Source of the DNA: Gemmatimonadota bacterium
GTDB taxonomy: Bacteria; Gemmatimonadota; Gemmatimonadetes; Palauibacterales; Palauibacteraceae
Direction: 5' to 3'
NCBI GenBank assembly: GCA_049668445.1
Contig: JBATJK010000235.1
Span: 15,714-79,713 of the forward strand
Length of the DNA stretch: 64,000 nt
Made by a program: the position numbers and the translations under genes. Positions 2,320 to 43,165 of the stretch are shown here, in pieces; the first letter of the stretch is position 1, and each line of letters opens with the position of its first letter. The notes beneath the pieces were generated by a model. The model was not told the DNA's origin and made no database searches. It was given only the letters and a program-made list of their open reading frames with translations.

Positions 2320-2323
<4 letters not shown>
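1295..2323 (+). CDS. lpxD: UDP-3-O-(3-hydroxyacyl)glucosamine N-acyltransferase
   Basis: ATG at 1295 preceded by GGGGGAAAG. N-terminal LpxD domain plus long hexapeptide left-handed beta-helix repeats ([22 protein letters not shown]...). The larger ORF from 1142 is an N-terminal over-extension. Confidence 0.9.
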
Positions 2324-3617
<1,294 letters not shown>

Positions 3618-3621
<4 letters not shown>

Positions 3622-4415
3622 GCGACCCTCAGACCGCAGCTTCCGCAGCAATCCACCCGACCGCGATCATCGATCCAGGCGCCACGATACCCCAATCCGC
3701 TTCCGTGGGCCCCTATTCGATCATCGGACCCGGCGTCGTGATCGGGGAGAGGGTAATCATCGACTCGCATGTCCTGATCGAGCGGGACACGACCGTCGGG
3801 GATGACTGCCGCATCTGCAAGGGCGCGGTTCTTGGGACTGACCCTCAGGACCTCAAGTACGCCGGCGAGCCGACCACCCTGACGGTGGGAAATCGCACTA
3901 CGATCCGGGAGTACGCTACGCTGAATCGGGGAACGATCGATGCCGGGGTCACAACGGTGGGTGATGATTGCCTGATCATGGCATACGCCCACGTCTCGCA
4001 CGATTCGCGCGTGGGCAACCACGTGATCCTCGCGAATGCGGTCAACATGGGCGGACACGTGCTCATCGAGGACTGGGCCATCGTCGGGGGCGTGACCGCG
4101 GTTCACCAGTTCGTTCGAATCGGGTGCCATTCGTTCGTAGGAGGCGGCTCCAGGTTGCCTCAGGACGTGGCTCCGTATGTGATGGCCGCCGGCAGTCCGT
4201 GCGCCGCCTACGGACTCAACATCGTCGGCCTGAGGCGCAGAGGGTTCAAGAGGGAGACGATTCGCCAGATCAAGGACGCCTACCGGCTGGTCTTCCAGTC
4301 TGATCTGAACGTGTCGCAGGCCCTCGATCAAATCGTGGCCCGCGATGACCTGGTGCCGGAGGTCGAGCATATGGTGTCGTTCATCCGGTCCAGCGATCGT
4401 GGCATCACCACATGA
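3618..4415 (+). CDS. lpxA: Acyl-ACP--UDP-GlcNAc O-acyltransferase
   Basis: ATG at 3618 overlaps the lpxC/fabZ stop (ATGA). Hexapeptide repeats plus LpxA C-terminal helical domain (AYGLNIVGLRRRGF...IRQIKDAYRLVF). Confidence 0.9.
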
Positions 4416-5416
4416 GCGGCATGAAGGTCGGGGTTGTCGGCGTGGGTCGCCTTGGATCGGCCCACGCGCGAATTCTGGGAGAGATACCCGACTGCGAGCT
4501 CGTCGGGGTAGCCGACAACGACGGCAATCGCGCGCAGGAGGTGGCGAGCCGCCTGTCCGTGGAGGCTCTCGATGCCGCGTCTCTTGCCTCCCGTTGTGAC
4601 GCCCTGATCGTCGCGGTCACCACATCCGATCATCACCCCGTTGCGAGGATGGCCCTTGAGTCGGGCTGCCACGTTCTCGTCGAGAAGCCGCTCACTCCAA
4701 CGCTGGCCGAGGCCGACGACCTCGTGGATACGGCCGATCGGCTGGGTCTGTTCCTCGCCGTGGGGCACGTGGAGCGGTTCAATGCCGCCATTCGGGAGGT
4801 CCGACCGCTCCTCCGTGACCCGAGGTACATCTCCTCCCAGAGGCTCTCGATATTTCAGCCGCGCGGCACCGATGTTCCCGTGATGCTAGACCTCATGATT
4901 CATGACATCGATCTGGTCCTGGGCCTCGTGGACAGTCCGGTCGAGTCGGTTGACGCGGTGGGGATACCGGTTCTTACCGACTCGGTTGACATGGCCAGTG
5001 CGCGAATTCGGTTCGTCAACGGTGCCTGCGCCGATATCAGTGCCAGCCGAGTGTCGGCCGAACGGACCCGTGAATTGAGGCTGTTTCAACCGTCCGGCTA
5101 CTTCAGCCTGGACCTTGCGAAGGGGGAGGGGGAGTACCTCCGACGGCGAGAAGGAGTCGAACTGGCGGGGATCTCGCGCACACGGGATGTCGGAGAACTC
5201 TCCCTGGCCGACATCGTCGAGCGAGTCCCGATCAAGGGGGATGCCTCAGAACCGCTCCGGTTGGAGTTGGAGGCGTTCCTCGCCGCGGCAAGTGGCAAGG
5301 GAGACGACAGCGTAAGTGCCTCTGAAGGTAGAGCGGCACTGGAGATCGCCCTCCGAATCGAGAACGAAATCGAGGCATCGGCCAATGTCCCTGCACAAGA
5401 TCCGCGAGGAACGTAA
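4412..5416 (+). CDS. Gfo/Idh/MocA-family NAD(P)-dependent oxidoreductase (GnnA-like candidate)
   Basis: N-terminal Rossmann motif MKVGVVGVGRLGSAHAR, plus EKP motif (HVLVEKPL) typical of Gfo/Idh/MocA. ATGA overlap with lpxA stop. Located between lpxA and lpxB. Confidence 0.8.
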   Translation: MSGMKVGVVGVGRLGSAHARILGEIPDCELVGVADNDGNRAQEVASRLSVEALDAASLASRCDALIVAVTTSDHHPVARMALESGCHVLVEKPLTPTLAEADDLVDTADRLGLFLAVGHVERFNAAIREVRPLLRDPRYISSQRLSIFQPRGTDVPVMLDLMIHDIDLVLGLVDSPVESVDAVGIPVLTDSVDMASARIRFVNGACADISASRVSAERTRELRLFQPSGYFSLDLAKGEGEYLRRREGVELAGISRTRDVGELSLADIVERVPIKGDASEPLRLELEAFLAAASGKGDDSVSASEGRAALEIALRIENEIEASANVPAQDPRGT

Positions 5417-5519
5417 GAAGCTGGGCGTCGGCGCCAAGCGCGGCCCGCGAACCCTGACCCTGATTGCCCTCCTTGTCCTGGTCGTCCTGCTCATGGTCTA
5501 CCTGAACCGGCTTGGCTGA
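5385..5519 (+). CDS. Possible 44-aa single-pass membrane protein wedged between the oxidoreductase and lpxB (speculative)
   Basis: ATG at 5385. Lys/Arg-rich N-terminus (MSLHKIREERKKLGVGAKRGPR) followed by one hydrophobic helix (TLTLIALLVLVVLLMVYL). Overlaps the 3' end of the upstream gene by 32 nt in another frame, and its stop overlaps the lpxB start. No recognisable homology. Confidence 0.25.
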   Translation: MSLHKIREERKKLGVGAKRGPRTLTLIALLVLVVLLMVYLNRLG

Positions 5520-6627
5520 CCCGGCGATCTTCCTGGCTGCGGGCGAACAGTCAGGTGACCTGCACGGCGCCGAGCTTGCCCGCGAGCTGAAGATTCGAAT
5601 TCCGGGCGTGCGCCTCTACGGTCTGGGCGGAAGCCGGATGGCCGCCGAGGGAGTGGAGCTGCTTGCCGATCTCGATCGCACGGCCATACTGGGCTTTGCG
5701 GAAGTCGTCCGCCACCTGCCTGATCTCGCTGGCCTGCGCCGAGAGGTGAGGCGATTCCTCCTCGAGCGGAAGATCGACCTCCTGGTTCCCATCGATTATC
5801 CGGGCTTCAACCTTCCGCTCGCGAGGTATGCCAGGCGGAACGGAATATCCGTTCTGTACTATATCGCCCCGCAGGTGTGGGCATGGCATGAGTCCAGAGC
5901 AAGAAAGCTGGCGCAGGACACGGATCTCGTATGCGTGGTCCTTCCGTTCGAAGAAGATCGACTGAAGCGCTGGGGCGTGCGGACGCGGTTCGTCGGCCAC
6001 CCTCTCCTGGACCGTCAATCGTTGAGAGCCGATGTCGGTGGCGACCCCGACGCCGCCACCCGGATCGGCATCTTCCCGGGGTCGCGCTTGCAGGAAGTGA
6101 GTCGCCTTCTTCCCACCTTTCTCGAGGCGGGCCGGCAACTCGCGTCCCGTTTGCCGGACCTCGAGATCCTGGTGGCCCGCGCCCGCGATCTACCCGATTC
6201 AGCGTACGAGGGTCTCGGTGAGGCCACCCTCGTCGATGCCGAGTCAGCCATTCTCTCCGCGAGTGCTGCGATTACCAAGTCCGGCACCATCACCCTGCAA
6301 CTGGCACTGGCCGGCGTGCCGATGGTCGTGGGTTACCGGGTGAATACGCTGACGTATTCGATCGCCAGGCGTCTCGTGAAGGTAGACCACATCGCACTGG
6401 TCAACCTGGTGGCAGGACGCAGGGTGGTTCCGGAGTTCATCCAGGGAGAGGTAACTGCAGCGACTATCGCCGAGGCGGCTCTCCCTCTCCTGGATCGAGA
6501 CGCTCCGGCCCGGCGAGATCAGATCGCGGGTTTGCGTAAGGTGGTGGATCGCCTCGGTGATCCGGGAGCGGCCGGAAGAGTTGCGGATGAGTGCTCCGGG
6601 CTGCTGGCCGTTCGGGCGAAGTCATGA
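5512..6627 (+). CDS. lpxB: Lipid-A-disaccharide synthase
   Basis: IFLAAGEQSGDLHGAELARELK... matches the LpxB N-terminus (GE.SGD motif). GT19 fold throughout. Apparent TTG start at 5512 (start uncertain by a few codons). Confidence 0.88.
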   Translation: MADPAIFLAAGEQSGDLHGAELARELKIRIPGVRLYGLGGSRMAAEGVELLADLDRTAILGFAEVVRHLPDLAGLRREVRRFLLERKIDLLVPIDYPGFNLPLARYARRNGISVLYYIAPQVWAWHESRARKLAQDTDLVCVVLPFEEDRLKRWGVRTRFVGHPLLDRQSLRADVGGDPDAATRIGIFPGSRLQEVSRLLPTFLEAGRQLASRLPDLEILVARARDLPDSAYEGLGEATLVDAESAILSASAAITKSGTITLQLALAGVPMVVGYRVNTLTYSIARRLVKVDHIALVNLVAGRRVVPEFIQGEVTAATIAEAALPLLDRDAPARRDQIAGLRKVVDRLGDPGAAGRVADECSGLLAVRAKS

Positions 6628-7295
6628 AGGTCGACTTTGCCCTGCTCGCGGCCAGGCACGTCGGGCCCGGCTTCCTCGCGGCCCTCGGTCGCTCGTGGCG
6701 GTTCCGGGAGCTCGACCCCACGGGACAGGCTGCCACCAGCCGCCACAGGGCAGGGGAGGGTGTCTACGCACTGTGGCACGCCCAGCAGCTTCCTCTTACG
6801 CTCAGGCACCGGACGGAAAACGTCGCGGTGATCATCAGTCAGCATCGAGATGGCGAGATCATCTCCCGGATGGTCGAGGGAATCGGCTACCGAACCATTC
6901 GGGGCTCCAGCACGCGCGGAGGATCAGAGGCGCTGCGCGAGCTGACACAGGCGGCCTCCGAGGGGCATTCGCTGGCGATCACGACCGACGGCCCGCAGGG
7001 TCCTCCCAGGCAGTGCAAGCCGGGCGCGGTTCTCGCCGCCGCTCGGACCGGATTTCCTATCATTCCGGCCGCGGCGGCAGCGGTCCACGCGTGGACGTTC
7101 AGCAGTTGGGATCGATTCTTCGTTCCGAAGCCCGGCTCGGTCGTCTACGTGAGCTACGGCGATCCCATCCATGTCCCTGCAGATCTGGAAACCGCTACCA
7201 CCGCCGAATGGCAGGCCAGGGTGACAGAGGCTCAGAACGAGGCCACAGCGGTCTGTGAGAGGGCCGTTGCCCGAGTGGGGGGTAGGACAGCATGA
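6624..7295 (+). CDS. DUF374-domain protein (lysophospholipid-acyltransferase-like; lipid A cluster-associated)
   Basis: ATG at 6624 overlapping the lpxB stop (ATGA). Sequence resembles the DUF374 family, which is frequently fused to or adjacent to KdtA/WaaA or sits between lpxB and lpxK. The downstream lpxK start overlaps its stop. Confidence 0.7.
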   Translation: MKVDFALLAARHVGPGFLAALGRSWRFRELDPTGQAATSRHRAGEGVYALWHAQQLPLTLRHRTENVAVIISQHRDGEIISRMVEGIGYRTIRGSSTRGGSEALRELTQAASEGHSLAITTDGPQGPPRQCKPGAVLAAARTGFPIIPAAAAAVHAWTFSSWDRFFVPKPGSVVYVSYGDPIHVPADLETATTAEWQARVTEAQNEATAVCERAVARVGGRTA

Positions 7296-8380
7296 AGTCT
7301 GGCCTGGGGTTGGATGAGCGTGTGGAGGCGCGGATTCGAGGGGCGTGGAATGGCCGGCCCGGGGGCGCCCTGCGACTGTCAGCGGCCGCCTATCGCGCCG
7401 TGACCGGGGCGAGGAATCTCCTCTACGAGTCCGGCGTTCTTGCCAGCCGGCGCGCCCCCATACCCGTCGTGTCCGTCGGAGGGCTCACGGTCGGCGGGTC
7501 CGGCAAGACCCCGATCACGGCCGATCTCGCGGCGCGCCTTGGACGAGCCGGAGTGCGGACGGCGATCCTGACGCATGGTTTCGACGACGAGATGGACGTG
7601 CACCGCAGGTTGGCCCCTGGAGCGCTGGTGTATGGAGGTCGCGACCGAGCGAGCCTGGCCGGCATGGCTGCGGGCGAGGGCGTGCAGCTCGCGCTCCTGG
7701 ACTCCGGCTTTCAGCACCGGAAACTGCATCGCGATCTCGATATCGTGACCGTCGACGAGACCACAGCTGGCGGAAGCCTGGCACGCCTGCCGGCCGGCCC
7801 TTTTCGAGAGGGCCTGGCCGCCATCACGAGGGCGGACCTGGTGGTCGTGGTGAGCAGGCCTCCGGCAGGTGAGGGCTCAGCCGGCCAGGAGGATCGTCGG
7901 GAGTTGGTCGCCCGGGGTCGTTCGCGGCTGCGCGAGTTGGAGGAGGCTTCGGTCGCCCCACCGTTCTTGTCAGCCCGAATTCTCCCCGGTCCTCTGGTGG
8001 CCGCCAACGAGCCCGCCAGGGCGGTGAACGAGCCCCGTCCGAGCGTTGCGGTTGCCGGCATCATGTGGCCCGAGATCTTCTTCGACCAGGTGCGCCCCCT
8101 GGCCGCGCCCGAACTCGAGATTGTGCGCCTTCGCGACCACGCCCGCATCGATGACGCTCTGGCGGATCGACTTCGAGACGGGGCTCGCGACGCGGGCGTC
8201 GTTTGCACTCTGAAGGACTCGATGAAGCTGGTCCGCGTCCTGGAAGACTCGGTTCCGGTATGGTATCTCTCAGAGAGCGTAATCTGGGACGAACCCGGGA
8301 CCTTGCCCACTGTCTTTCGGGCGGCTCTGTCCCTCCTTGACCCGCCCGACCCTGACTCGAACGAAAGTCTGGCCCCATGA
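7292..8380 (+). CDS. lpxK: Tetraacyldisaccharide 4'-kinase
   Basis: P-loop SVGGLTVGGSGKTP, characteristic of LpxK. Size 362 aa. Position after lpxB. Confidence 0.85.
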   Translation: MKSGLGLDERVEARIRGAWNGRPGGALRLSAAAYRAVTGARNLLYESGVLASRRAPIPVVSVGGLTVGGSGKTPITADLAARLGRAGVRTAILTHGFDDEMDVHRRLAPGALVYGGRDRASLAGMAAGEGVQLALLDSGFQHRKLHRDLDIVTVDETTAGGSLARLPAGPFREGLAAITRADLVVVVSRPPAGEGSAGQEDRRELVARGRSRLRELEEASVAPPFLSARILPGPLVAANEPARAVNEPRPSVAVAGIMWPEIFFDQVRPLAAPELEIVRLRDHARIDDALADRLRDGARDAGVVCTLKDSMKLVRVLEDSVPVWYLSESVIWDEPGTLPTVFRAALSLLDPPDPDSNESLAP

Positions 8381-10453: not shown

Positions 10454-11217
10454 CCTCCTCGAAGCCGACACGGGAGTGGTTTCGTGACTGGTTCGGCGAG
10501 GAGTACCTGGCCCTCTACCCGCACCGGGACGAGCGAGAGGCACGCGAAGCCGTGGACCTCTATCGCGACGTTGCCTCTCCTGAGCCGGGCTCCCGGCTCC
10601 TCGACCTGGCTTGCGGGGCGGGCCGGCATCTACGCGAGCTGCGGGCCGCCGGCCTCGATGCGACGGGCCTCGACCTGTCGCCGACCCTGCTGCGATCCGC
10701 CAGATCCAGCGCCGGAGCGGATCCCCTGGTGCGTGGAGACATGCGCCAGCTCCCGTTCTGTTCCGGGTCATTCGGCGGACTGACCAGCTTCTTCACGTCG
10801 TTCGGATACTTTGCGGAGACGGCCGACGATCGGCGGGTCCTACGCGAAATGGCCCGGGTGCTGGCTCCGGGAGGCACGTTCATGCTGGACTTCTTGAACG
10901 CTGCGCGCGTTCGAGAGGACCTCGTCCCGGAGGATTGCCGTGAGGTCGAGGACCGGCGAGTGGTACAGGTCCGGGAGATCATCGACGGCGTCGTCGTGAA
11001 GCGGATACGGATCGAGCCCGTTGCCGGGGGCCCGGCCCGCCACTTCGAAGAGCGCGTGCGCCTGTATTCCTGCGAGGAACTGGTGTCACTGCTGGCCGGA
11101 GTGGGACTCGCGACCACGGCACGTTTCGGCGACTATGTGGGAGCCTCGTACTTCGACCGATCGCCCCGGCTCATACTGGCCGGGCGACTGGATCCGGCAG
11201 GGGAGGAGACGGTGTGA
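10450..11217 (+). CDS. Class I SAM-dependent methyltransferase (candidate bacillithiol N-methyltransferase, NmbA-like, by context)
   Basis: GTG start overlapping the rlmH stop (GTGA). Motif I LLDLACGAGRH and a post-I acidic residue. Methyltransf_11/25-like. Its stop overlaps the bshC GTG start (GTGA), with GGAGGAGA RBS for bshC inside its 3' end. Confidence 0.8.
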   Translation: MTSSKPTREWFRDWFGEEYLALYPHRDEREAREAVDLYRDVASPEPGSRLLDLACGAGRHLRELRAAGLDATGLDLSPTLLRSARSSAGADPLVRGDMRQLPFCSGSFGGLTSFFTSFGYFAETADDRRVLREMARVLAPGGTFMLDFLNAARVREDLVPEDCREVEDRRVVQVREIIDGVVVKRIRIEPVAGGPARHFEERVRLYSCEELVSLLAGVGLATTARFGDYVGASYFDRSPRLILAGRLDPAGEETV

Positions 11218-26271: not shown

Positions 26272-27033
26272 TCAGAGGCGTCCGAACAGAGAGCGGAAGC
26301 GCAGGGCCCACACTCTCCACACCGCCTCGCGTACGATGGCTCCCGACATCTTGCTCTCGCCTTCCGTGCGGTCCACGAACACGATGGGTACCTCCCCGAC
26401 GCGGAACCCCTTCTTCCAGGCCCGGAAGTCCATCTCGATCTGGAACGTGTAGCCGGTCGATCCCACCTTCGAGAAGTCGATCGCTTCCAGCACCTCGCGG
26501 CGGAAACACTTGAACCCTGCCGTGGCATCCGACAGGGGGAGTCCTGTCACCACACGGGCGTACTTGTTCGCGAACCAGGACAACAGGAGGCGGCTCATGG
26601 GCCAGTTGATGACGTTGACCCCGCTCACGTAGCGAGAGCCGATCACCAGGTCGAGGTCTCCCTCGGCGGCCTCGAGCAGCGCGGGAAGATACTTCGGGTC
26701 GTGCGAGTGATCCGAGTCCATTTCCAGAAGGAACTCGTATCCGTTCTCCAGGCCCCAGGTGAAACCCCTCAAATAGGCGCTCCCGAGCCCCTGCTTGCCC
26801 TCCCGATGTACCACGTGAACGCGAGGGTTGTCGGACGCCATCAGATCGGCGACTTCACCCGTACCGTCAGGTGACGCGTCGTCCACGACCAGCACGTCGA
26901 TCCTCGGGTCCTGATCCAGCACCACGGGGACGATCGAGGCCAGGTTGCCGGCCTCGTTGTAGGTCGGCATGACGACGAGCGCCCTGCCCCGTCCGATCGG
27001 CTCCGCTCCCGGAACGTTCGGATTCTCGTTCAA
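26272..27033 (-). CDS. GT2 polyprenyl-monophosphate sugar synthase (DPM1/Ppm1-like, soluble type)
   Basis: ALVVMPTYNEAGNL...VLVVDDASPDGT...DSDHSHDP (DxD/ED motifs of DPM synthases). No C-terminal TM helices. Probable TTG start at 27033-27031 overlapping the stop of the upstream gene (TTGA); an internal ATG start (26970) is an alternative. Confidence 0.78.
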   Translation of the reverse strand: MNENPNVPGAEPIGRGRALVVMPTYNEAGNLASIVPVVLDQDPRIDVLVVDDASPDGTGEVADLMASDNPRVHVVHREGKQGLGSAYLRGFTWGLENGYEFLLEMDSDHSHDPKYLPALLEAAEGDLDLVIGSRYVSGVNVINWPMSRLLLSWFANKYARVVTGLPLSDATAGFKCFRREVLEAIDFSKVGSTGYTFQIEMDFRAWKKGFRVGEVPIVFVDRTEGESKMSGAIVREAVWRVWALRFRSLFGRL

Positions 27034-27989
27034 GCCACTCTCTCCTCTTCCTCTACCGTTCTGGGCCAGGCCAGCACCAGAGCCAGCGCGGCGAGTTCGG
27101 TCACCAGCATCCATATCCGGGCCATGATCGCGACCGCAGCCGCCACACCCACCGCCAGCCCCACCAGGTCGGCGAGCAATGCCGTCATCGCGCCCTCGCG
27201 CACGACCAGACCGCCCGGGGCCACCAGCACAAGGTAGCCGACCACATAGCTGGCCGCGAAAATGCCCGTAAGTACCGGCAGATGGCTGACTTCAACTGCG
27301 ATACCGACACCTCGCAAGAGCAGGAAGAGTCCGACCCCATACAGGCACCAGGCCAGGAGCATCCCGGCGGCGGCCCGCACGATGTGTCCCGAGTCCAGCT
27401 CCACCCTCAGGTCGTCTTCTCCGAGCCAGCGGCCAAGCCGACTCGCGACCCAGCGAATCACACGAGGGTGCAATCCCAGCACGAGGATCCCCCCGAGCGT
27501 GATCACGACAGGTACCCAGCTCCCCTCGGCTCCAGCCCACGCGACGCCGATGGTGGATGCGGCGACGGCGCCCCCCGTGACCAGCGTGACAATCTGGAAA
27601 GCCAGCGCGGAGACGAGAGCCGCGGCTCCCGAGTCGCCACGTCCCTTCATGTACGCGGCCAGGCCTCCCAGCTGCCAGACCTTTCCCGGTATGTAACGGC
27701 CGAAGTTGGTGACCACCCAGACTCTGACGGCTTCGGTCCGCCGGACGTTGCCCCCGGTCCCCCTGAAGAGGCTGGCCCAGACACTGCCCATGAGCAGAAG
27801 GTTCGCGACACCAACCACGATCGCCAGCACCAGAAGCCAGGGGCTGAAAGACCAGTCGAAAGCGCGGGTCGCGGCCATGACCTCGTCCAGCGAGGTCCAC
27901 TGCCCTCTCAGCAGCATCCCCACGAAGGTGAGTGCGACGACAAGAAACACCACCGTCACCACGCGACGTGGCTCGCGACCCGAGGTCAC
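27030..27989 (-). CDS. Flippase-like polytopic membrane protein (lysyl-PG-synthase TM-region / TIGR00374-like)
   Basis: ~320 aa, 8 predicted TM helices. GK-rich loop NFGRYIPGKVWQLGGLAAY, typical of the UPF0104 / LPG synthase TM domain. GTG start at 27989-27987 overlapping the YfhO stop (GTGA). Confidence 0.65.
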   Translation of the reverse strand: MTSGREPRRVVTVVFLVVALTFVGMLLRGQWTSLDEVMAATRAFDWSFSPWLLVLAIVVGVANLLLMGSVWASLFRGTGGNVRRTEAVRVWVVTNFGRYIPGKVWQLGGLAAYMKGRGDSGAAALVSALAFQIVTLVTGGAVAASTIGVAWAGAEGSWVPVVITLGGILVLGLHPRVIRWVASRLGRWLGEDDLRVELDSGHIVRAAAGMLLAWCLYGVGLFLLLRGVGIAVEVSHLPVLTGIFAASYVVGYLVLVAPGGLVVREGAMTALLADLVGLAVGVAAAVAIMARIWMLVTELAALALVLAWPRTVEEEERVA

Positions 27990-30316
27990 GATTCCTCCGG
28001 CTCCTTCCCTGACCGGCTCATGCCGGGGAATCGCCAGGGCAAGAACCCGATCAGGAGCCACACGAGAGCGCCGGCCGCCGAGATCCCAGAGACCATGAAC
28101 CCGATCCGGAACTCGGCCGCGGAATAGCGGAAGGTCACCTCGTGAGTGCCCGCCGGCACGACGACGCCCCGGAACGCAGTATTGGTCCGCAGGATCTCGG
28201 TGGGCTGTCCGTCGATTCGGGCCCGCCAGGCCGGATAGTAGACTTCACTGAGAAACAGGAGCCCGGCCTGGCTGGCCTCCACCTGCAGGACGAGCTCGTT
28301 GGGCTCGTATCGCATGATCGTCGCCACCCCCGAGCCCGCCGCCGGAGCCACGTCACCCTCTACGATGGCAAGCTCGAGCGGATCGGCCTCGAGAATCCGG
28401 CGCAGGGCCTCAGCCGTGTCCGGTGTGGCCTCGACTCTTCGCGGGAAGAACGCGTGCGGAACGTCGCCCAGCACCCGGTAAGCCGAGCCTCGCGACCCCG
28501 TAGCCTCCAGAGCGAGAATCTCGGCTGACACGCCTGGCCCGGCCACGATGAAGCCCACATCGAGCAGCCCCAGGGCCGCCACCGTGCCCACGTTCTGCAT
28601 CCCCAATCCGCCCGTGAAGCGCTCGTACCATTCGAGTCGGAACTTCTGGATGCCGGTAACCGTGGGGATTCCATGGACGCTGAGCTCACTGGGCCCGTAG
28701 CCCGCCATTCCCGCCGGAGGGAAGGCCCTCTCGGCCAGGACGAGTTCCGAGCGCAGGTGCTCGATCACCGTATCGGAGGGAAAGACGGTCTCTGGATCCA
28801 CCGTCCGGAGGTAGCGGTCGTTCACGCGCCAGCCATCAGCGACCATGACAAGGAGGAGGAGGGCAACCACCCACTCCGGAGCGCGACGCATTCCCACCCC
28901 CCAGGCCGCGCCCAGGCCGCCTCCGACGCCCAGCAGGAGCATCCAGCCGTTCATCCGGAGCGGTCCCCCTGGATCCGCCGCCGCGGATCGGGTCCAGCCC
29001 ACCGGATACCATGCCGTTCGCACCCAGCGGAGCAGGCCCTCGGGTGAGAAGGCCGCGGCAAGACCGAGAAGGAGCAACGGCGAGGCCAGCAAGAAGACCC
29101 AGACCCACGGGATGCTGCCCACTCCCCTGCGAGCCTCCAGCACCTTCTGCCACCCCAGGCCGGCCAGGAGCGCGATCATGAGGCTCGCGGGACCCAGCAT
29201 CATCGATGGTGCTCGGAATTGCTTGACGAACGGAATGACCGAGTACGCCAGTCGATGCAGCGGCGTGGCCGCGCCCAGGGCGAAGAGAACGCAGGTGAGA
29301 GCGGTAATCGCGACGAAGGTCACCCTGCGATCGCTGCGGATCGCTGTCAGGGCGACGAGGGCCAGGGCCACTGGCACGGCGCCCAGGTACTCGGTGTGGA
29401 GCTTGAACGGGTTGCTTCCCCAATATGTCCCGAGCGATCCGATCAGGTCCGGAAGGATGAGGGCGGAAACCTCCTGCGGGGGAAGCGCCCACGACGATGC
29501 GAAGGCGTAGCCCGACTCCCCTGCCCCACCGCGCACGGCCACGTCCAGGATCTGGACGGTGGGCAGGAGCTGAGCCAACCCGACCAGACCCGCCACCGCG
29601 AAGCCCAGCGCCCACATGCCGACCAGGGGAACCGCTGTTCGCGCCCCCTCGTTCCTGGCTCGCTGCCCGATCCTCATCGCCGCGTACAGCGTGAGAGCGA
29701 GCGAGGAGTAGTACATGAGCTGGATATGGGGCGTAAAGATCTGCAGGGCGATCACGAGGCCAAGGGCGACGAACCACCGAGTGCGGCTCGACTCGAGGCC
29801 CCGTTCGAGACACATGAACGCCAGTGGAATCAGCGCCATCGCGAACATGCGGCCGTCGTGTCCCCCGTACAGTGTCGACACGACGAACCCCGTAAGCATG
29901 AACGCCAATCCGGTCACCGCTGACGGCATGCGCTCCAGTCGAATCGACCGGGCTGCCAGGTAGGCGAAAACACCCGAAAGGAACGTGTGCAATACGAATG
30001 TCCAGCCGATGGCCCGGTGCAGGGGCATGATCAGGTAGAGAAGACTCGTCGGATAGAACACCGGGCCGGGCAGGATCGCGAGGTAGGGTTGTCCCCCATA
30101 CACAAACGGATTCCACAACGGAAACCCTCGGCCGGACCGAATTTCGCCTACTCCGAACGAGCGCAGCTGGAAGCCCTCGTTGATCATGTCGTCGCCGTAC
30201 AGCATCGCGCCGGGATCGAAGATGAACCCGCGGTAGAACACCAGGGTCAGAAATCCGGCGACTGCAGCCGCAATCCATACGAATTGCCGTGTGCTCCAGC
30301 GCCCACCGCCGGTCAT
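27986..30316 (-). CDS. YfhO-family membrane glycosyltransferase (GT-C fold)
   Basis: ~776 aa polytopic. YfhO-like N-terminal region (FYRGFIFDPGAMLYGDDMINEGFQLRSF...FPLWNPFVYGGQPYLAILPG...) and a C-terminal periplasmic domain. ATG at 30316-30314 overlaps the stop of the upstream methyltransferase (ATGA). The longer ORF to 30439 is an over-extension. Confidence 0.72.
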   Translation of the reverse strand: MTGGGRWSTRQFVWIAAAVAGFLTLVFYRGFIFDPGAMLYGDDMINEGFQLRSFGVGEIRSGRGFPLWNPFVYGGQPYLAILPGPVFYPTSLLYLIMPLHRAIGWTFVLHTFLSGVFAYLAARSIRLERMPSAVTGLAFMLTGFVVSTLYGGHDGRMFAMALIPLAFMCLERGLESSRTRWFVALGLVIALQIFTPHIQLMYYSSLALTLYAAMRIGQRARNEGARTAVPLVGMWALGFAVAGLVGLAQLLPTVQILDVAVRGGAGESGYAFASSWALPPQEVSALILPDLIGSLGTYWGSNPFKLHTEYLGAVPVALALVALTAIRSDRRVTFVAITALTCVLFALGAATPLHRLAYSVIPFVKQFRAPSMMLGPASLMIALLAGLGWQKVLEARRGVGSIPWVWVFLLASPLLLLGLAAAFSPEGLLRWVRTAWYPVGWTRSAAADPGGPLRMNGWMLLLGVGGGLGAAWGVGMRRAPEWVVALLLLVMVADGWRVNDRYLRTVDPETVFPSDTVIEHLRSELVLAERAFPPAGMAGYGPSELSVHGIPTVTGIQKFRLEWYERFTGGLGMQNVGTVAALGLLDVGFIVAGPGVSAEILALEATGSRGSAYRVLGDVPHAFFPRRVEATPDTAEALRRILEADPLELAIVEGDVAPAAGSGVATIMRYEPNELVLQVEASQAGLLFLSEVYYPAWRARIDGQPTEILRTNTAFRGVVVPAGTHEVTFRYSAAEFRIGFMVSGISAAGALVWLLIGFLPWRFPGMSRSGKEPEES

Positions 30317-31077
30317 TCGCTGATCTCCAGGGCGTCGGACGGACGTGCCGGCCGCTCGAGGAAGAAGAACCACTGCGGCGATCCGGTTCTGAGGAAGCTC
30401 CGGCGCACCCCAGCAGGCATTCTGCGCATGGCTCCCCACACGGCACCCCAGCGCTCGCCCCAGGCCATGCGGATCAGGTCGTCAATGGCACGCTCTGTCA
30501 CGTCGTGGATGATAAAGCCCGCTGATCGCATGAGTCTCGTCAAGGGTCGATAGGTGAGGAACCGGATGTCGTCGTACGACCGCCCCCGGCGCGTGATGCG
30601 AAGGTAGGCCCCGGCTGACCCCTTCGGTAGCCAACTGAGAAACGGCAGCCGGTAGTGAGGCTCCACGATCGCGAAGCGGCTGCCCGCCGTAACGTAGGCC
30701 CGCCCACCCGGCCTCAGTACCCGATAGGTCTCGCGGAACAGTTCTCCCGCATCGGGAACGTGCTCGTACAGGTGGTTCAACATCACGAAGTCCAGGCTCT
30801 CCGAGGCGAAGGGGATGCGCAGAACATCTCCCCGGACCATGCGTTCCTTCTCGACTATGAATTCGCTGTCTATTTCCAGTCCATATATCGGGTTACCAGA
30901 CTCCACTTCAAGTGCCTTGCGAATAATTCCGGTTCCCGCGCCGAGGTCCGCCGCGCGGGCCGAGCCCGTCAGGTAGGGCGCGCACAGGTGGGCGATGACA
31001 CGGGCCTTTCGGAGGCGTCCCTCCCGATAGGCCTCGGTGGCCGTGAACCTTTCGTATCGATCAGTCCCGGCGCTCAC
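30313..31077 (-). CDS. Class I SAM-dependent methyltransferase
   Basis: Motif I DLGAGTGI; acidic post-I; Methyltransf_11/23-like (VMLNHLYEHVPD...VLRPGGRAYV). GTG start at 31077 is 14 nt after the GT4 stop. The longer ORF to 31191 would overlap GT4 by 130 nt. Confidence 0.72.
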   Translation of the reverse strand: MSAGTDRYERFTATEAYREGRLRKARVIAHLCAPYLTGSARAADLGAGTGIIRKALEVESGNPIYGLEIDSEFIVEKERMVRGDVLRIPFASESLDFVMLNHLYEHVPDAGELFRETYRVLRPGGRAYVTAGSRFAIVEPHYRLPFLSWLPKGSAGAYLRITRRGRSYDDIRFLTYRPLTRLMRSAGFIIHDVTERAIDDLIRMAWGERWGAVWGAMRRMPAGVRRSFLRTGSPQWFFFLERPARPSDALEISE

Positions 31078-32281
31078 GGCGTGCCTCCACGGCGGACGAA
31101 TACACGGCAGTCGTCTCCTCCAGGATTCGCTCCCACGAGAAGCGTGCCTCGGCTCGCCGTTTGCCCTGAGCCGCCACGCGGCGGGCTTCATCCGGATCGG
31201 AGATCACATCGAGAATTCGCCGCGCGAGGACCTCCGAATCCCCTGGATCCGATAACCACCCGGTCTCCCCGTCGATCACGATGTCGGGAATGCCCCCTGC
31301 TCGAGAGGCGACGACGGGGCGCTCATACGCCAGCGCCTCCAGAAGGACGACGCCAAGGCCCTCGGTGTCGCCACGCGAATCCACCACCGCGGGAAGGACG
31401 AAGATGTCCGACTCCGCATACTCCTGCGCGAGCCGCTCCGCCGTCACGAATCCGCGCATGTGGACATGATCCGCGACGCCCTCCAGCGCCGCCGTCCGCC
31501 GCACGCTGTCCTCTCGATTCCCCGAGCCGACGATCACCAGTTCCGCGTCCCGCGTGTGCCGGAGTCTGGCGAGGGCTCGAACCAGCACTTCGACACCTTT
31601 CCTCTCCACGAGCCGGCCGACGAACAGCAGCCGGACGGGATCAGTGGCACTGGAGAGGGCCGGGCGAATGCGGTCCGGTGACACGTCCGGGATCACCGCT
31701 GCATAGGGGACAACGGCCACGGAGCGATCCCACAGGCCCTGTACGGACCTCGCCGTCGAGGTGGAGATGGCCGTCACCGCGTCCGCGGACCGGATGCTCC
31801 ACTCGAGAAACGGACGGAGCCACGGGAGGCGCTGATCTACCCAATTCACCTCCACGCTGTAGAAGCTGCAGACCATCGCGGTCCGTCCCCTCGACGCCCG
31901 GCGCATGGAGGCCCCGAACAGGGCATGCGGCATGGGCCAGTGAACGTGCACCAGATCTGGTCCACCGCGCCCCAGGTCCGCGGCCGCGGCGCACCCTGCC
32001 GCGAGGTAGGACGGCACGAGCGCCGCCGATGCGGGGCGGTCGCGGATCCGATCAGGGACGGCCTGATCGTGTGTGAGTGTTTCCAGGAAACGGGGCGCGT
32101 ACCGGAAACGTCGCACGGGAACGCCTGAGGATTCCTCGTCCGGTCCACCTTTGTACGCGGGCGCCAGGACGCTGGCATCGATTCCAGCCTGGCGCTGACG
32201 TCGGACCAGCTCGACCAGCCAGGGGGTGATCGGATCATCACGATGCCTGGGAAAGGCCGTGGCTACATGAATGACCTTCAT
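31061..32281 (-). CDS. Glycosyltransferase family 4 (retaining, GT-B)
   Basis: 406 aa. N-terminal Glyco_transf_4-like domain (MKVIHVATAFP...) and C-terminal Glycos_transf_1 (EX7E: GDTEGLGVVLLEALAYERPVVASRAGGIPDIV). ATGA overlap with the upstream GT39 gene. Confidence 0.85.
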   Translation of the reverse strand: MKVIHVATAFPRHRDDPITPWLVELVRRQRQAGIDASVLAPAYKGGPDEESSGVPVRRFRYAPRFLETLTHDQAVPDRIRDRPASAALVPSYLAAGCAAAADLGRGGPDLVHVHWPMPHALFGASMRRASRGRTAMVCSFYSVEVNWVDQRLPWLRPFLEWSIRSADAVTAISTSTARSVQGLWDRSVAVVPYAAVIPDVSPDRIRPALSSATDPVRLLFVGRLVERKGVEVLVRALARLRHTRDAELVIVGSGNREDSVRRTAALEGVADHVHMRGFVTAERLAQEYAESDIFVLPAVVDSRGDTEGLGVVLLEALAYERPVVASRAGGIPDIVIDGETGWLSDPGDSEVLARRILDVISDPDEARRVAAQGKRRAEARFSWERILEETTAVYSSAVEARRERRD

Positions 32282-33882
32282 GGTTCGCCGGGCGCTGAAG
32301 CGGTCCGCGGGGCCGATAGCAGACGCAGGAGCGCCGTGCCTTCTTCTCCTCCCACCGTGTGTACGACCTCGAAGCGCTCCAGGTTGGCCGCGATGGCCGG
32401 AATCAGGTACATGGCCGTGGTGGCGCTCAGCCGGTCGACCAGCACGTAGTCCGCCCCCATCTCCTCGAGCCCCCGCAGCACGACGGAAGGATCCTGGGAG
32501 TAGGGATACAGGTCTCCCTGTCGACGAGAAAACAGGTAGAAGGTGGCGGGGCTGCGGTTGGCGATGACCGACCCCTCAGGGGTGTTCTCCGAGGCCCACC
32601 AGCCCATGGCATAGAACTCCCGGTACTGTGGACGGTCACACGGATGACCGTCCCGGTACGCGAACTGGCAGGCTACCCGGTACGACACGACAGATCCTGC
32701 CGAGTACAGGGCCATCGTGGCGACTCCGGCCACGACGAGTCCTATCGTCGCGTACCCGATCCTCCGCCCCATGGATTCGACGCCAGCCGCCGCTCCCGCC
32801 GCGCCGAACACAACGAGGAGTGGCAGGATGGGAAGGAGAAACCGACGGTCGGTCCACACCGGCGGCCACAGCAGGATGAGACCGACGTAGAACGCCACGA
32901 GGAGGTGGGCCACACTCACCCGATTGGCGGCCGACCGAAGCCAGCCGTAAAGGACCAGCGAACTCAAGAAGACTCCGGCGATGGCCGTGCCAGTGACCGT
33001 CGCCCTCCGAACGGTTGGGAACCCGAATGAGCCAGGCAACTCTGAGCTGACGTAGCGCCAGAGGTTCGTCGCCGCCCGCGCCGGAAAGTCCATCAAGCTG
33101 ACGGTTCCAGCGGCCGGGACGTAGGGGTTCTGCTGGATGAGCTGCTGCAGGTAACCCGGCTGCGAGGGCTGGGCCACGTGCTGATAGACGGCCCAACCTG
33201 CGACACAGAAGAGGGCCACCAGCAAGGCCGCCACGGCCCGCCGGCGATCCCGCGACAGGAGGGCCCACACCACCAGGGTGAGAAGCACGGACAGCCCGGC
33301 CGTGCGGGTGAAGAAGGCCGCGGCCGCAGCTGCCAGGGCCGCGGCTCCGACACGTCTGTCTCCCAGGGTGGCCGCGACGACGGCCAACAGGAGGAAAGTG
33401 AACGCCGCTTCGGACAACACCCGGTGGGAGAAATCCAACAGAACCGGCGCCATGGCAAACAGGCCGGCCGCCACGAACGCGGCCCGCTTTCCGACGAGCG
33501 ATTCGGCGATTCGATAGGTCAGCCACACCGAACCCGCGGCGAACGCCATCGAGGCCGCCTTGAACAGCTGCAGGCCACCGAACCAGCCTGCGATCGCCAG
33601 GATCAGGGGGTAGCCAGGCGGGAACTTCGCGTGCAGCGGCGAACCCGGCAGCTGGATGTCCCGGAAGCCCATCCCGCTGCGCAGCGACTCGCCGAGGACC
33701 ATGTAATGGCCCGCATCCGCCCCCGGGAAGAGCGTCGGCTCGAACACCAGTACGGCCAGGAGCACGTGGGCGGCGACGAGCACCGTTGGTGCGAGGATTC
33801 CCTCCGCTCCCGAGAGAGACGCAGCGTCCTCAGCCTTGAGATCCTTAGAGTCGGGCCCTCCGGCGGTGCCCCGGCCGATCAC
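32278..33882 (-). CDS. GT-C glycosyltransferase, family 39/83 type (PMT / ArnT-like; polyprenyl-phosphate-sugar dependent)
   Basis: 534 aa, ~11 TM helices then a ~150-aa C-terminal soluble domain. N-terminal loop with acidic/aromatic residues (HYMVLGESLRSGMGFRDIQLPGSPLHAKFPPGYPLILA), typical of PMT_2/ArnT. ATGA overlap with the GT2 upstream. Confidence 0.72.
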   Translation of the reverse strand: MIGRGTAGGPDSKDLKAEDAASLSGAEGILAPTVLVAAHVLLAVLVFEPTLFPGADAGHYMVLGESLRSGMGFRDIQLPGSPLHAKFPPGYPLILAIAGWFGGLQLFKAASMAFAAGSVWLTYRIAESLVGKRAAFVAAGLFAMAPVLLDFSHRVLSEAAFTFLLLAVVAATLGDRRVGAAALAAAAAAFFTRTAGLSVLLTLVVWALLSRDRRRAVAALLVALFCVAGWAVYQHVAQPSQPGYLQQLIQQNPYVPAAGTVSLMDFPARAATNLWRYVSSELPGSFGFPTVRRATVTGTAIAGVFLSSLVLYGWLRSAANRVSVAHLLVAFYVGLILLWPPVWTDRRFLLPILPLLVVFGAAGAAAGVESMGRRIGYATIGLVVAGVATMALYSAGSVVSYRVACQFAYRDGHPCDRPQYREFYAMGWWASENTPEGSVIANRSPATFYLFSRRQGDLYPYSQDPSVVLRGLEEMGADYVLVDRLSATTAMYLIPAIAANLERFEVVHTVGGEEGTALLRLLSAPRTASAPGEP

Positions 33883-34844
33883 CTTCTGAGCTCTCGGCGG
33901 AGATCCTCCACCTCGGCCCGGAGCCCCGCGATCAGTTCAGCCAGCAAACCTGCCACGAACAGCAAGCCTCCCAGAAGAACCAGAAAGACGACAAGGGTGA
34001 GAAGCGGTCTGAACCCCGTGCCCAACGCGTAGCGCAGAATCAGGGCCACGATTCCAACGAGCACCCCCACTCCAGCCACGAACAGACCGGTGAGTCCGAA
34101 GAAGAGCATCGGTTTGCGGCTGAACACCAGCTGGAACCACACGGAGATCAGGTCGAGCAGCCCGACCACCACCCTGCCCTGCCCGCTGTACTTGGACACG
34201 CCGTGGCGCCTGGGAAGCAGATCGATGTCGATCTCGCCGATCCGAAATCCCCGATCGTGCGCCAGGACAACGAGATAGCGGTGCCAATCCTCGCGGAGGT
34301 GAATCTCGTCCACCACCTCCCGCCGGAACGCCTTCATGGAGTTCAGGTCACGGACCGGCACCCGGAAGATCATGCGTGACAGGCCATTGTAGGCCCCCGA
34401 CACCATGCGCTTCGGGTAGTCTCCCACCTTGCGCCCCACCACCACATCGTGGTCCTCATCCAGCGCATCCAGGAAGCGGGGGATCTCGTCCGTGGCGTGC
34501 TGGAGATCGGCATCGAACAGCACGAATACGGGCGCGTCGGTGGACCTCACGGCCGTCACCAGGGCCGCCGTCTTCCCCCTGTTCACGCGATGTCGCAGGA
34601 AGAGGGTCCGATCCTCGATGCCCGAAGCGCTGGCCGCCGTTCGTGCCGCCTCGAGCGTCCCATCAGTCGAACCGTCGTCGACCAGGACGATTCTACCGTT
34701 CAGCTGAAAGCGTGAGAACGTCCCCGCCAGATCCTGAAACAGATCCGGCATGTTCTCCGCTTCGTTATAGGCCGGAACGATTACCGAGAAGCGTATGGAG
34801 GTCGGCGGGAGGGGGTCGGCGGGAGACAACCCGGACTCGGTCAT
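33879..34844 (-). CDS. GT2 polyprenyl-phosphate sugar synthase, GtrB/ArnC/CsbB type (two C-terminal TM helices)
   Basis: FSVIVPAYNEAENM...IVLVDDGSTDGT...DADLQH (DxD...D). C-terminal TM pair (MLFFGLTGLFVAGVGVLV...LLGGLLFVAGLL). ATG at 34844-34842 overlaps the rpoN stop 34843-34841 (ATGA). Confidence 0.85.
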   Translation of the reverse strand: MTESGLSPADPLPPTSIRFSVIVPAYNEAENMPDLFQDLAGTFSRFQLNGRIVLVDDGSTDGTLEAARTAASASGIEDRTLFLRHRVNRGKTAALVTAVRSTDAPVFVLFDADLQHATDEIPRFLDALDEDHDVVVGRKVGDYPKRMVSGAYNGLSRMIFRVPVRDLNSMKAFRREVVDEIHLREDWHRYLVVLAHDRGFRIGEIDIDLLPRRHGVSKYSGQGRVVVGLLDLISVWFQLVFSRKPMLFFGLTGLFVAGVGVLVGIVALILRYALGTGFRPLLTLVVFLVLLGGLLFVAGLLAELIAGLRAEVEDLRRELRR

Positions 34845-36280
34845 ACTCGCTTACGCATCCTCGCCGAGAGGATTCCGAGTTGATCCCTGTACTTCGCGAC
34901 TGTCCGCCGCGCGATCTGGACGCCCTCCTGCTTCAGGACGTCCACGATGGCCTGGTCGGTCAGGGGTTTCTTCGGATCTTCGTCGGCCACCAGCTTCTGA
35001 ATCCGGGCCCGGATACCCCGGGCGGATACGTCCTCGCCGTAGTCAGTCGACAGCCCGGAGGAGAAGAAGAACTTCAGAGGGAGCACCCCGCGTGGCGTCT
35101 GCACGAACTTGTCGTTCGTCACTCGCGACACGGTGGACTCGTGCATGTCGATGTGCTCCGCCACCTCGCGAAGGGTCAGGGGCCTCAGGTGCTCCACGCC
35201 CTTCTCGAAGAACTCGCGCTGACGGTCTACGATGAAGCCCATGACCTTGAGCATCGTCTGCCGTCGCTGCTCGATCGCCTGGATCATCCACTGAGCGCTG
35301 TTGAGCTTCTTGGAGATGAAGGCCTTGTTCTCTCCCTGGTACTGGTTCCGGTCCTGGGCCACCTCCCGGTAGGATCGCGAGAGCTTGAGGCGCGGCAACG
35401 ACGAGTCGTTGTGAAACACGAAGTACTCGCCATCGACCTTCTCGACCGCCAGGTCGGGAATGACGTAGTTGTCGCTCATGTCCGCGTACTTCAGACCGGG
35501 CTTCGGATCGAGCTTGGCGATCGAATCGGCAGCGCTCTGGACGTCCAGGGGAGAGATCCCGTGTTCCTTGGAAAGCTCGCTCCACCTGTGGTTCACCAGC
35601 TGCTCGAAATGGTCCTGGATGATTCGATAGGCCAGGCTATCGTCTTCCTTCCGCTCCCGCAGCTGGATCAGAAGCGTCTCGCGTAGATTCCGGGCACCGA
35701 CGCCCGAAGGATAGAAGCCCTGAATGACCCGGAGAACCGCTTCCGCCTCCTCGAGCGTGAAGGGCTCCATCTCCGCCCACAGTTCGGGCTCGCTCTCGGC
35801 CAACCACGTGTTGGCCGCTTCGACGACTTCCTCGAGGCTGCAGGCGAGAAACCCCTCGCGATCGATGTTGCCGATGATCTCCTCACCAAGGGCGAACTCA
35901 CGCGGTCCGAGCGTGAGGAGATTGAGCTGCTCGCGCAGGTGCTCCCAGAGATCGGGCGGAGCAGCCGGAGTGGGCATGTAGTGCTCTTTGTCTTCGAACT
36001 GGCTCCGTCTACCGCCTGCATCGAAGCCGTTCAGGAGGATCTCTTCCCAATCGACCTCGTCCTCGTCTTCTTCCTCTTCCTGCTTCTCTTCAGGAAGTTC
36101 CTCTTCCGCCATCTCGGTGAACTCGAGGAACGGATTGACCAGCACCTCCAGCTTCAGGTGCGCCTGCAGGTCCAGCAGAGGCATGTAGAGCAGATCCATC
36201 GCCTGGTAAAGGCGGGGATTGATCTTCAGCTCCTGCCGCATTCCGAGGCTCTGCGAGAGCCCTCGTCTAAAATCCGCCAT
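34841..36280 (-). CDS. rpoN: RNA polymerase sigma-54 factor
   Basis: 479 aa. Q/L-rich region I (MRQELKINPRLYQAMDLL), acidic region II, and C-terminal RpoN box (ARRTVAKYRDQLGI). Downstream of lptB as in most Gram-negatives. Confidence 0.9.
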   Translation of the reverse strand: MADFRRGLSQSLGMRQELKINPRLYQAMDLLYMPLLDLQAHLKLEVLVNPFLEFTEMAEEELPEEKQEEEEDEDEVDWEEILLNGFDAGGRRSQFEDKEHYMPTPAAPPDLWEHLREQLNLLTLGPREFALGEEIIGNIDREGFLACSLEEVVEAANTWLAESEPELWAEMEPFTLEEAEAVLRVIQGFYPSGVGARNLRETLLIQLRERKEDDSLAYRIIQDHFEQLVNHRWSELSKEHGISPLDVQSAADSIAKLDPKPGLKYADMSDNYVIPDLAVEKVDGEYFVFHNDSSLPRLKLSRSYREVAQDRNQYQGENKAFISKKLNSAQWMIQAIEQRRQTMLKVMGFIVDRQREFFEKGVEHLRPLTLREVAEHIDMHESTVSRVTNDKFVQTPRGVLPLKFFFSSGLSTDYGEDVSARGIRARIQKLVADEDPKKPLTDQAIVDVLKQEGVQIARRTVAKYRDQLGILSARMRKRV

Positions 36281-36413
36281 CTGCTACTCGACCACTCCGT
36301 TCAATCCGGTTCTGCGGCCGCACGGGCCGCACGCTGCATGTAAGATAGCGTACGCGGTACACACGGCACACCCCTTGCAGGACGGGCCGAGCGCCGCACC
36401 CCTGGTGTGGAGT

Positions 36414-37145
36414 TTAGAGCTCGAAATCGAGCCCCAGATACATCTTGCGGGCTTCCGGATCGTCAACGAGGGTTTGAGCCGGTCCCTCGATATGAATCTG
36501 GCCGTTGAACATCAGGTAGGCCCGGTCCGTGATCGAGAGAGTCTCGCGCACGTTGTGGTCCGTGATCAGCACGCCGAGGCCACGTTCCCTGAGCTCTGCG
36601 ACGATGCGCTGGATGTCATCCACCGCAATGGGGTCAACGCCGGCGAATGGCTCGTCGAGCAGCATGAACTTGGGGCGAGTGACCAGGGCCCGTGTGATCT
36701 CGAGTCTGCGTCGCTCACCACCTGACAACGAATCCGCCTTGCTCTTCCGCAGGTGGCCGATCGACAACTCGCCGAGCAGCTCGTCCAACCGGCTCTGACG
36801 CTCCGCGCGCGTCATGTCGAGCGTCTGCAGAATGGCCATGACATTCTGCTCGACCGTGAGACGCCGGAAGATCGAGGGCTCCTGGGAGAGGTAGCCGATA
36901 CCAGCTCGGGCACGGCGATACATGGGGACCCTGGTCAGTTCCTGCTGGTCGAGGTACACCCGGCCCGCGTTTGCGCCGAGCAATCCCACGATCATGTAGA
37001 AGGTGGTGGTCTTCCCCGCCCCGTTGGGTCCAAGCAACCCTACGATTTCACCCTGGTGGACCTCGAGGTCGACACCATCCACCACACGCCGTTTGCCGAA
37101 CGCCTTCACCAGCCCCTCGGCCCTCAAGACGCTCCTGGTGCTCAA
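36414..37145 (-). CDS. lptB: LPS export ABC transporter ATP-binding protein LptB
   Basis: Walker [10 protein letters not shown], signature [11 protein letters not shown], Walker B LLDEP. 243 aa. Adjacent to lptA/lptC and rpoN. Confidence 0.9.

Positions 37146-40665: not shown

Positions 40666-43165
<2,500 letters not shown>

Follow-up and report, generated by a model that had tools for sequence, protein, structure and literature searches.

A GnnA orthologue lies between lpxA and lpxB in Gemmatimonadota, with a predicted role in amide-linked lipid A

Described GnnA systems and the lpx operon of the window

GnnA has been described before, as have its fold and chemistry and its occurrence within lpx operons. 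The sole characterised member, from Acidithiobacillus ferrooxidans, was reportedly identified by Sweet et al. in 2004 as a UDP-GlcNAc 3-dehydrogenase. WbpB and WlbA belong to the same Gfo/Idh/MocA family and likewise perform C3 oxidation of a UDP-sugar, with a DegT aminotransferase taking the next step; their substrate, however, is a uronic acid (UDP-GlcNAcA). The gene for GnnA need not lie beside gnnB, which encodes its partner aminotransferase. [quoted passage not shown] In Capnocytophaga canimorsus the lipid A genes are dispersed, and GlcN3N is made as well (PMC3342949). These two organisms, in which GlcN3N or hybrid GlcN3N-GlcN lipid A is proven, provide a precedent for separated gnnA and gnnB, although their gnnA lies away from the lpx cluster whereas the gene that we describe here lies inside it.

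The window, which is the whole 64,000-nucleotide stretch of DNA analysed here (G+C about 64%), contains a run of genes from lpxD to nadB that are all encoded on the + strand. The 3' end of bamA and then skp, also on the + strand, lie upstream of lpxD. The run begins with lpxD (1292-2323; NCBIfam NF002060, 374 bits; TIGR01853, 349 bits), followed by an lpxC-fabZ fusion (2320-3621), which scores 477.7 bits against NF009667, exceeding the cutoff of 465, and has the Pfam domains LpxC and FabA. Next is lpxA (3618-4415), encoding the acyl-ACP--UDP-GlcNAc / UDP-GlcNAc3N acyltransferase (NCBIfam equivalog NF003657, 358.9 bits; TIGR01852, 339 bits), and then the gene of interest (4412-5416), whose 334-residue product is a predicted UDP-GlcNAc 3-dehydrogenase by Pfam, NCBIfam, PDB and AlphaFold2 comparisons. 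A 44-residue open reading frame (5385-5519) precedes lpxB (5512-6627, TTG start), which codes for lipid-A-disaccharide synthase (Pfam LpxB, E 1.2e-93; TIGR00215, 300 bits). The run continues with a DUF374 gene (6624-7295, start from gene callers; Pfam DUF374, E 3e-28), a family that we take to be that of the LpxJ late acyltransferases, and with lpxK (7292-8380; Pfam LpxK, E 2.3e-50; TIGR00682 above cutoff) and nadB downstream of it. Elsewhere the window carries kdsA, kdsC, kdsD, lptC, an LptA-like gene, lptB and several glycosyltransferase genes, and with these genes the organism clearly makes LPS.

The first-pass annotation had placed a Gfo/Idh/MocA reading frame between lpxA and lpxB, and we found the same: the frame at 4412-5416 carries PF01408 and PF22725, and its flanking genes score 359 bits (lpxA) and 300 bits (lpxB). 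It had also described the lpx genes as contiguous and translationally coupled, with ATGA overlaps on both sides of the inserted gene. Overlaps of 4 nt (GTGA or ATGA) do join lpxD to lpxC-fabZ, lpxC-fabZ to lpxA, lpxA to the gnnA-like gene, lpxB to the DUF374 gene, the DUF374 gene to lpxK, and lpxK to nadB. The ATGA on the lpxA side is real, with the gnnA-like ATG overlapping the lpxA stop codon. On the lpxB side, however, there is no such overlap. The gnnA-like gene stops at 5416 and the earliest possible lpxB start is the TTG at 5512, leaving a 95-nt spacer, and this is the sole junction from lpxD to nadB that lacks a 4-nt overlap.

The 44-residue reading frame bridges this spacer, sharing 32 nt with the gnnA-like gene and 8 nt with lpxB. 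Its product has a basic N-terminus and one predicted transmembrane helix, and a Pfam search with it gave no match. Independent gene callers predict it on six public contigs. Nine Gemmatimonadota loci of the Longimicrobiales type have conserved it, whereas Gemmatimonadales lack it.

Identity of the lpx-linked oxidoreductase

The 334-residue product matches Pfam GFO_IDH_MocA (PF01408, E 1.2e-26) and GFO_IDH_MocA_C3 (PF22725). When we searched all PDB sequences with phmmer, the best match was 7BVJ/7BVK, the GnnA of A. ferrooxidans, over residues 3-316 (E 3.9e-49, 171 bits), and the runner-up followed more than 30 orders of magnitude behind (E 1.6e-15). We also built an AlphaFold2 model on 15 homologues (pLDDT 89.5) and compared it by Foldseek. 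The top structure was again 7bvj, entitled [quoted passage not shown] (E 2e-32, TM 0.85-0.93), and the next fold was 10 orders behind at 4e-22. Pfam, the AlphaFold2 model and Foldseek agree on a Gfo/Idh/MocA fold of two domains, the N-terminal one being a Rossmann NAD-binding domain.

Identity to the A. ferrooxidans enzyme is 37% by BLASTP. The two proteins share the fold, the lysine of an EKP motif and the histidine of a DLMIHD motif, and both genes are associated with lpxA/lpxB. The window protein differs in having a longer C-terminal region and an insertion at about residues 247-275 that is absent from the A. ferrooxidans enzyme, and its gene differs in having no gnnB beside it; its activity is predicted. 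In the alignment of 15 homologues, the GxGxxG motif, D35, K92 (EKP) and H164 (DLMIHD) are invariant in the Gemmatimonadota proteins. K92 and H164 correspond in the alignment to K91 and H164 of the 7BVJ chain, two residues that Manissorn et al. in 2020 reportedly proposed as candidates for the catalytic base.

Several other assignments were considered and rejected. The top NCBIfam model is likewise a UDP-GlcNAc 3-dehydrogenase, the archaeal NF040723, and so agrees with GnnA on the predicted chemistry, but the score of 168.6 bits against a cutoff of 450 bits places the protein outside that equivalog. WbpB/WlbA membership was rejected since PDB entries 3Q2K and 3Q2I are only distantly similar, matching at E values of about 2e-7 to 4e-7 and over the N-terminal domain only. 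We also rejected a role as a GH109-like redox replacement for the UDP-2,3-diacylglucosamine hydrolase LpxH/LpxI, because C3 of that substrate is acylated and the protein is GnnA-like throughout.

A neighbor-joining tree of 83 homologues groups them by phylum, with the A. ferrooxidans enzyme nested inside and with Gemmatimonadota monophyletic on no long or aberrant branch. Because the tree follows the phyla and contains the characterised enzyme, it fits one orthologous family, whose partner gene gnnB would lie beside gnnA in some phyla and elsewhere in the genome in others. The identical protein is present in a MAG contig (GCA_049668325.1), one JGI metagenome and four Logan assemblies, and its closest relatives bear NCBI names from Gemmatimonadota. 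Public records label the gene just "Gfo/Idh/MocA family oxidoreductase" or "predicted dehydrogenase".

The missing neighbour gnnB is the only point in favour of reading the gene as a decaying, functionless relic left behind after gnnB loss. This reading is contradicted by conservation: the reading frame is intact, the homologues are 45-96% identical over many genera, 83 alignment columns, catalytic motifs included, are invariant across the 15 homologues, and the translational coupling has been kept. We therefore give the relic reading very little credence. The proposal in the first-pass annotation that the gene encodes a candidate GnnA, rather than a member of another Gfo/Idh/MocA clade, has held on every test that we ran, including its suggested alignment to the A. 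ferrooxidans protein, the structure comparison, the tree and the operon position. With these results, we conclude that the gene at 4412-5416 is a GnnA orthologue. NAD+-dependent oxidation of UDP-GlcNAc at C3 is the activity predicted from its sequence.

Placement of gnnA and gnnB across genomes

We scanned one genome per species and annotated the resulting 80 loci by phmmer; 28 of them are from Gemmatimonadota. The order lpxD, lpxC/fabZ, lpxA, gnnA-like gene, lpxB, DUF374, lpxK is kept in all 28, and the 10-kb flanks of the gnnA-like gene hold no DegT gene in any of them. In contrast, in Desulfuromonadota (Geobacter and other Desulfuromonadales: L035, L041, L054, L056 and L057) and in locus L089, the slot between lpxA and lpxB holds gnnA and then a DegT gene, gnnB. 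The same lpxA-gnnA-gnnB-lpxB order occurs in metagenome loci L167, L179, L184, L189 and L200. The first-pass annotation had noted that gnnA-type genes cluster with lpxA in some bacteria. Among the 80 genomes, gnnB adjoins gnnA only in Desulfuromonadota and one gammaproteobacterium. These operons match that of the window in slot and gene order, and their GnnA proteins are 41-47% identical to the window protein. The nearest relatives of the DegT proteins of the slot are sugar 3-aminotransferases, WbpE and QdtB among them, and one of these DegT proteins is named UDP-N-acetyl-3-dehydro-alpha-D-glucosamine 3-aminotransferase by JGI. Elsewhere the linkage is looser. At many loci in Verrucomicrobiota, KSB1 and Omnitrophota the gnnA-like gene adjoins lpxB without a DegT gene, and in Ignavibacteria, Bacteroidota and Cloacimonadota it is apart from the lpx genes.

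The Gemmatimonadota slot thus differs from that of the four-gene operons in lacking a DegT gene. In the window's lineage and the Longimicrobiales-type loci, the 44-residue membrane reading frame occupies the position where other phyla carry gnnB, an observation that is perhaps more noteworthy than the gnnA-like gene itself.

The first-pass annotation had found no DegT-type aminotransferase in the window, and our searches agree. A phmmer search with E. coli ArnB against all six-frame reading frames of at least 80 residues gave nothing at E<=10, and Pfam scans of the large reading frames gave no aminotransferase of any class. We then looked beyond the window. A GnnB profile run against 5.8 billion proteins returned only Desulfuromonadota and Proteobacteria among the best 120 listed, a depth that falls short of Gemmatimonadota. 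In a search of 50% representatives, GnnB orthologues collapse to about two clusters, and the names of ten high-GC representatives were uninformative. Searching plasmids by tblastn with GnnB gave polysaccharide-type paralogues only, at less than 52% identity and none from Gemmatimonadota. Finally, we scanned metagenome contigs for G+C-rich coding of the GnnB motif YYPIPLH(R/K)Q, which yielded 120 loci. Wherever the contig allowed a check, the complete members of the strict GnnB clade all adjoin gnnA, with the exception of L176, which sits in a polysaccharide locus. Among the 120 loci, none had an unlinked gnnB of the strict clade that could be assigned to Gemmatimonadota.

This last result, together with the absence of gnnB from a slot that is filled in other phyla, would be expected if the Gemmatimonadota had lost gnnB from the operon and their enzyme oxidised or reduced some other substrate in lipid A synthesis, or supplied a 3-keto or epimerised sugar without transamination. 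A Geobacter MAG (L072), in which gnnB has been deleted down to a 27-residue remnant and gnnA retained, indicates that gnnB is deletable while gnnA stays. On the other side, the catalytic residues and the overall sequence are GnnA-like throughout the phylum, and the tree has no long or aberrant branch. The 3-keto UDP-sugar produced by GnnA or WbpB is unstable and thermodynamically disfavoured, and normally needs a coupled step. Further, no lipid A whose backbone carries a 3-keto group or has the allo configuration is known to us. Taken together, we consider a different substrate, or a pathway that dispenses with transamination, to be improbable.

A murB-linked cluster in Gemmatimonadales and the predicted lipid A pathway

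The metagenome motif scan also revealed a second tight DegT clade of 17 loci, 46-48% identical to GnnB, whose members are by inspection about 80-85% identical to one another. The surrounding cluster, which is conserved and unlinked to the lpx operon, consists of carB, murB, a hexapeptide acetyltransferase gene, the DegT gene, a Gfo/Idh/MocA gene, two UDP-sugar 6-dehydrogenase genes and two epimerase genes. Exact-sequence look-ups placed the DegT proteins in clusters that NCBI names as Gemmatimonadales or Gemmatimonadetes bacterium. Tetranucleotide distance to the Gemmatimonadota loci, which is not discriminating alone, had pointed to the same DegT clade before the cluster names confirmed it. 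A search with the Gemmatimonadales DegT protein returned only Gemmatimonadales names, all at 77% identity or more, with the window's lineage beyond its reach. This diamino-sugar cluster and the Geobacter gnnB remnant are, like the small membrane protein, perhaps more noteworthy than the gnnA-like gene.

By its gene content, the cluster looks like a pathway that turns UDP-GlcNAc first into a 3-keto sugar, then into UDP-GlcNAc3N and finally into UDP-GlcNAc3NAc(A). The second of the new sugars, UDP-GlcNAc3N, is the one needed by a GlcN3N-type LpxA. The dehydrogenase of the cluster shows no resemblance to WbpB/WlbA and has 7BVJ as its second-best PDB match. Both it and the lpx-linked protein are predicted to act on UDP-GlcNAc, and they score almost alike against archaeal NF040723 (171 and 169 bits), both far below the cutoff of 450. 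The pathways differ in that the cluster and archaeal route would N-acetylate the 3-amine and serve glycans, as opposed to lipid A. Because a GnnB/WbpE-like DegT protein is conserved in Gemmatimonadales, we conclude from these sequences that aminotransferase chemistry is present in the phylum, the evidence coming from Gemmatimonadales as against the deep-branching lineage of the window. The Gemmatimonadales DegT protein, having a dehydrogenase partner of its own, may serve only the UDP-GlcNAc3NAc(A) pathway.

The presence of this complete-looking cluster, with its acetyltransferase, DegT, Gfo/Idh/MocA protein and UDP-sugar 6-dehydrogenases, raises the possibility that the lpx-linked gene, too, encodes a UDP-GlcNAc 3-dehydrogenase whose product goes into a different glycan (for example, as a 2,3-diacetamido sugar in the O-antigen, core or capsule), and that its position among the lpx genes reflects co-expression only. 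Related dehydrogenase/DegT pairs on plasmids and at many metagenome loci do lie within polysaccharide clusters. However, the UDP-GlcNAc3NAc(A) cluster already includes a dehydrogenase and would have no need of another for that purpose. The lpx-linked protein is also nearer to GnnA than the cluster enzyme is (171 versus 86 bits to 7BVJ), and the gene sits between lpxA and lpxB throughout the phylum and in several other phyla as well. We consider a role confined to another glycan to be distinctly unlikely.

Instead, we favour a model, to which we assign a probability of about 0.68, in which the gene encodes a GnnA that makes 3-keto UDP-GlcNAc for lipid A, an unlinked DegT protein aminates it, and LpxA N-acylates the product, placing GlcN3N in lipid A. 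First, GnnA would use NAD+ to oxidise UDP-GlcNAc at its 3-OH, giving the 3-keto sugar. Second, an unlinked, PLP-dependent DegT-type aminotransferase would convert this to UDP-GlcNAc3N. Third, LpxA, encoded by the gene to which gnnA is translationally coupled, would add the first acyl chain as an amide, after which LpxC, LpxD, LpxB, LpxK and the remaining pathway would proceed as usual. As a result, some or all of the lipid A glucosamines would be replaced by GlcN3N with amide-linked chains, at one or both positions. GlcN3N-type lipid A requires an aminotransferase, and this enzyme was found in Gemmatimonadales only; thus, for the genome of the window we infer the outcome. For Gemmatimonadota as a group, GlcN3N-containing, amide-linked lipid A is likely.

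A more specific version of this model links the two loci. The operon would keep the dehydrogenase and borrow amination from the murB-linked cluster, so that one UDP-GlcNAc3N pool would supply both lipid A and a second envelope glycan, and the 44-residue protein in the vacated gnnB slot might be a membrane partner of GnnA or LpxB. We regard this split branch as doubtful.

The LpxA sequence was considered as an arbiter of GlcN3N use and rejected as uninformative. The window LpxA is a typical LpxA, nearer by PDB matches to those of Burkholderia and E. coli than to that of Leptospira. E. coli LpxA accepts both UDP-GlcNAc and UDP-GlcNAc3N, and selectivity reportedly (Robins et al., in 2009) depends on how a backbone carbonyl is oriented, a feature that is unreadable from sequence.

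What is new here is a GnnA embedded in the lpx operon across the Gemmatimonadota, with gnnB displaced from the operon and with only generic annotation in public records. We found no lipid A structure for Gemmatimonadota in the literature that we covered. The result improves the annotation and offers a prediction that is testable in cultured Gemmatimonas and Longimicrobium strains; it introduces no new principle. Lipid A built on GlcN3N withstands both chemical and enzymatic deacylation better. The GlcN3N genes of Campylobacter reduce TLR4 activation and increase the resistance to antimicrobial peptides (PMC8036547). If our model is correct, Gemmatimonadota, which are common in soils and sediments, would make a lipid A in which the chains are amide-linked to a backbone of 2,3-diaminoglucose, and the same may apply to those lineages of Verrucomicrobiota, KSB1 and Omnitrophota that carry the gene beside lpxB.

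A small ORF and a gene fusion in the lipid A operon

Between gnnA and lpxB in the window lies a plus-strand ORF of 44 codons (MSLHKIREERKKLGVGAKRGPRTLTLIALLVLVVLLMVYLNRLG, 5385-5519), which overlaps both genes. Its product has a basic N-terminus, a single hydrophobic helix and a WYLxR-like end, and a Pfam scan of it returned no match. The ORF is kept in nine Longimicrobiales-type Gemmatimonadota loci, with counterparts at L008:10977-11111, L009:3095-3229, L011:6191-6328, L013:10950-11084 and L018:10950-11084. Gemmatimonadales loci are without it, and there gnnA and lpxB abut. The ORF may encode an undescribed small membrane protein belonging to the lipid A operon.

Also on the plus strand, lpxC and fabZ are fused into a single protein of 433 aa (2320-3621), which scores 477.7 bits on NCBIfam NF009667, slightly over the cutoff. 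The two halves occupy separate frames or ORFs in two Gemmatimonadales loci (L033 and L067).

A second envelope gene block in the window, on the minus strand (26272-41500), includes kdsA, kdsC, kdsD, lptC, a gene for a 455-aa protein, lptB, rpoN and a GT2 gene; the 455-aa protein matches LptA/LptD_N only weakly. The block also holds genes for a 534-aa membrane protein, a GT4, a methyltransferase, YfhO, LPG_synthase_TM and another GT2, the last three of which resemble a polyprenol-phosphate sugar glycosylation system.

Candidate unlinked, apparently lost and extended GnnB relatives

In Opitutales/Verrucomicrobiota lineages, lpxB is adjoined by gnnA without a DegT gene. A clade of stand-alone DegT proteins carrying the GnnB-type motif YYPIPLHRQ, found on metagenome contigs (L104, L143, L187, L207 and L210), was assigned to the same group, and is a candidate for the unlinked gnnB of those lineages. 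At a locus from a Geobacter sp. MAG (L072), the sole ORF immediately 3' of gnnA is 27 aa long (MILPVYPEMPEESVRLVAQTIREALVG, 10942-11025) and matches the GnnB C-terminus from related Geobacter loci. Unless the assembly is at fault here, this locus seems to have lost gnnB and kept both gnnA and lpxB. GnnB-like DegT domains also form the C-terminus of several representative proteins of 610-770 aa (P0257, P0275, P0348, P0356, P0357 and P0380), whose N-terminal extensions of 250-370 aa are long enough for a fused dehydrogenase.

A murB-linked sugar gene cluster in Gemmatimonadales

Gemmatimonadales metagenome contigs carry a conserved cluster (L091:4902-7629; L211:5411-8117) of carB, murB, an LbH acetyltransferase gene, a DegT gene, a Gfo/Idh/MocA gene, two UDP-sugar 6-dehydrogenase genes and two epimerase genes, most of them joined by 4-nt overlaps. 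The DegT protein is highly alike from one Gemmatimonadales locus to another and shares 46-48% identity with GnnB, and the Gfo/Idh/MocA gene resembles that for UDP-GlcNAc-3-dehydrogenase. The cluster is predicted to encode a UDP-2,3-diacetamido-sugar pathway adjoining a peptidoglycan gene.
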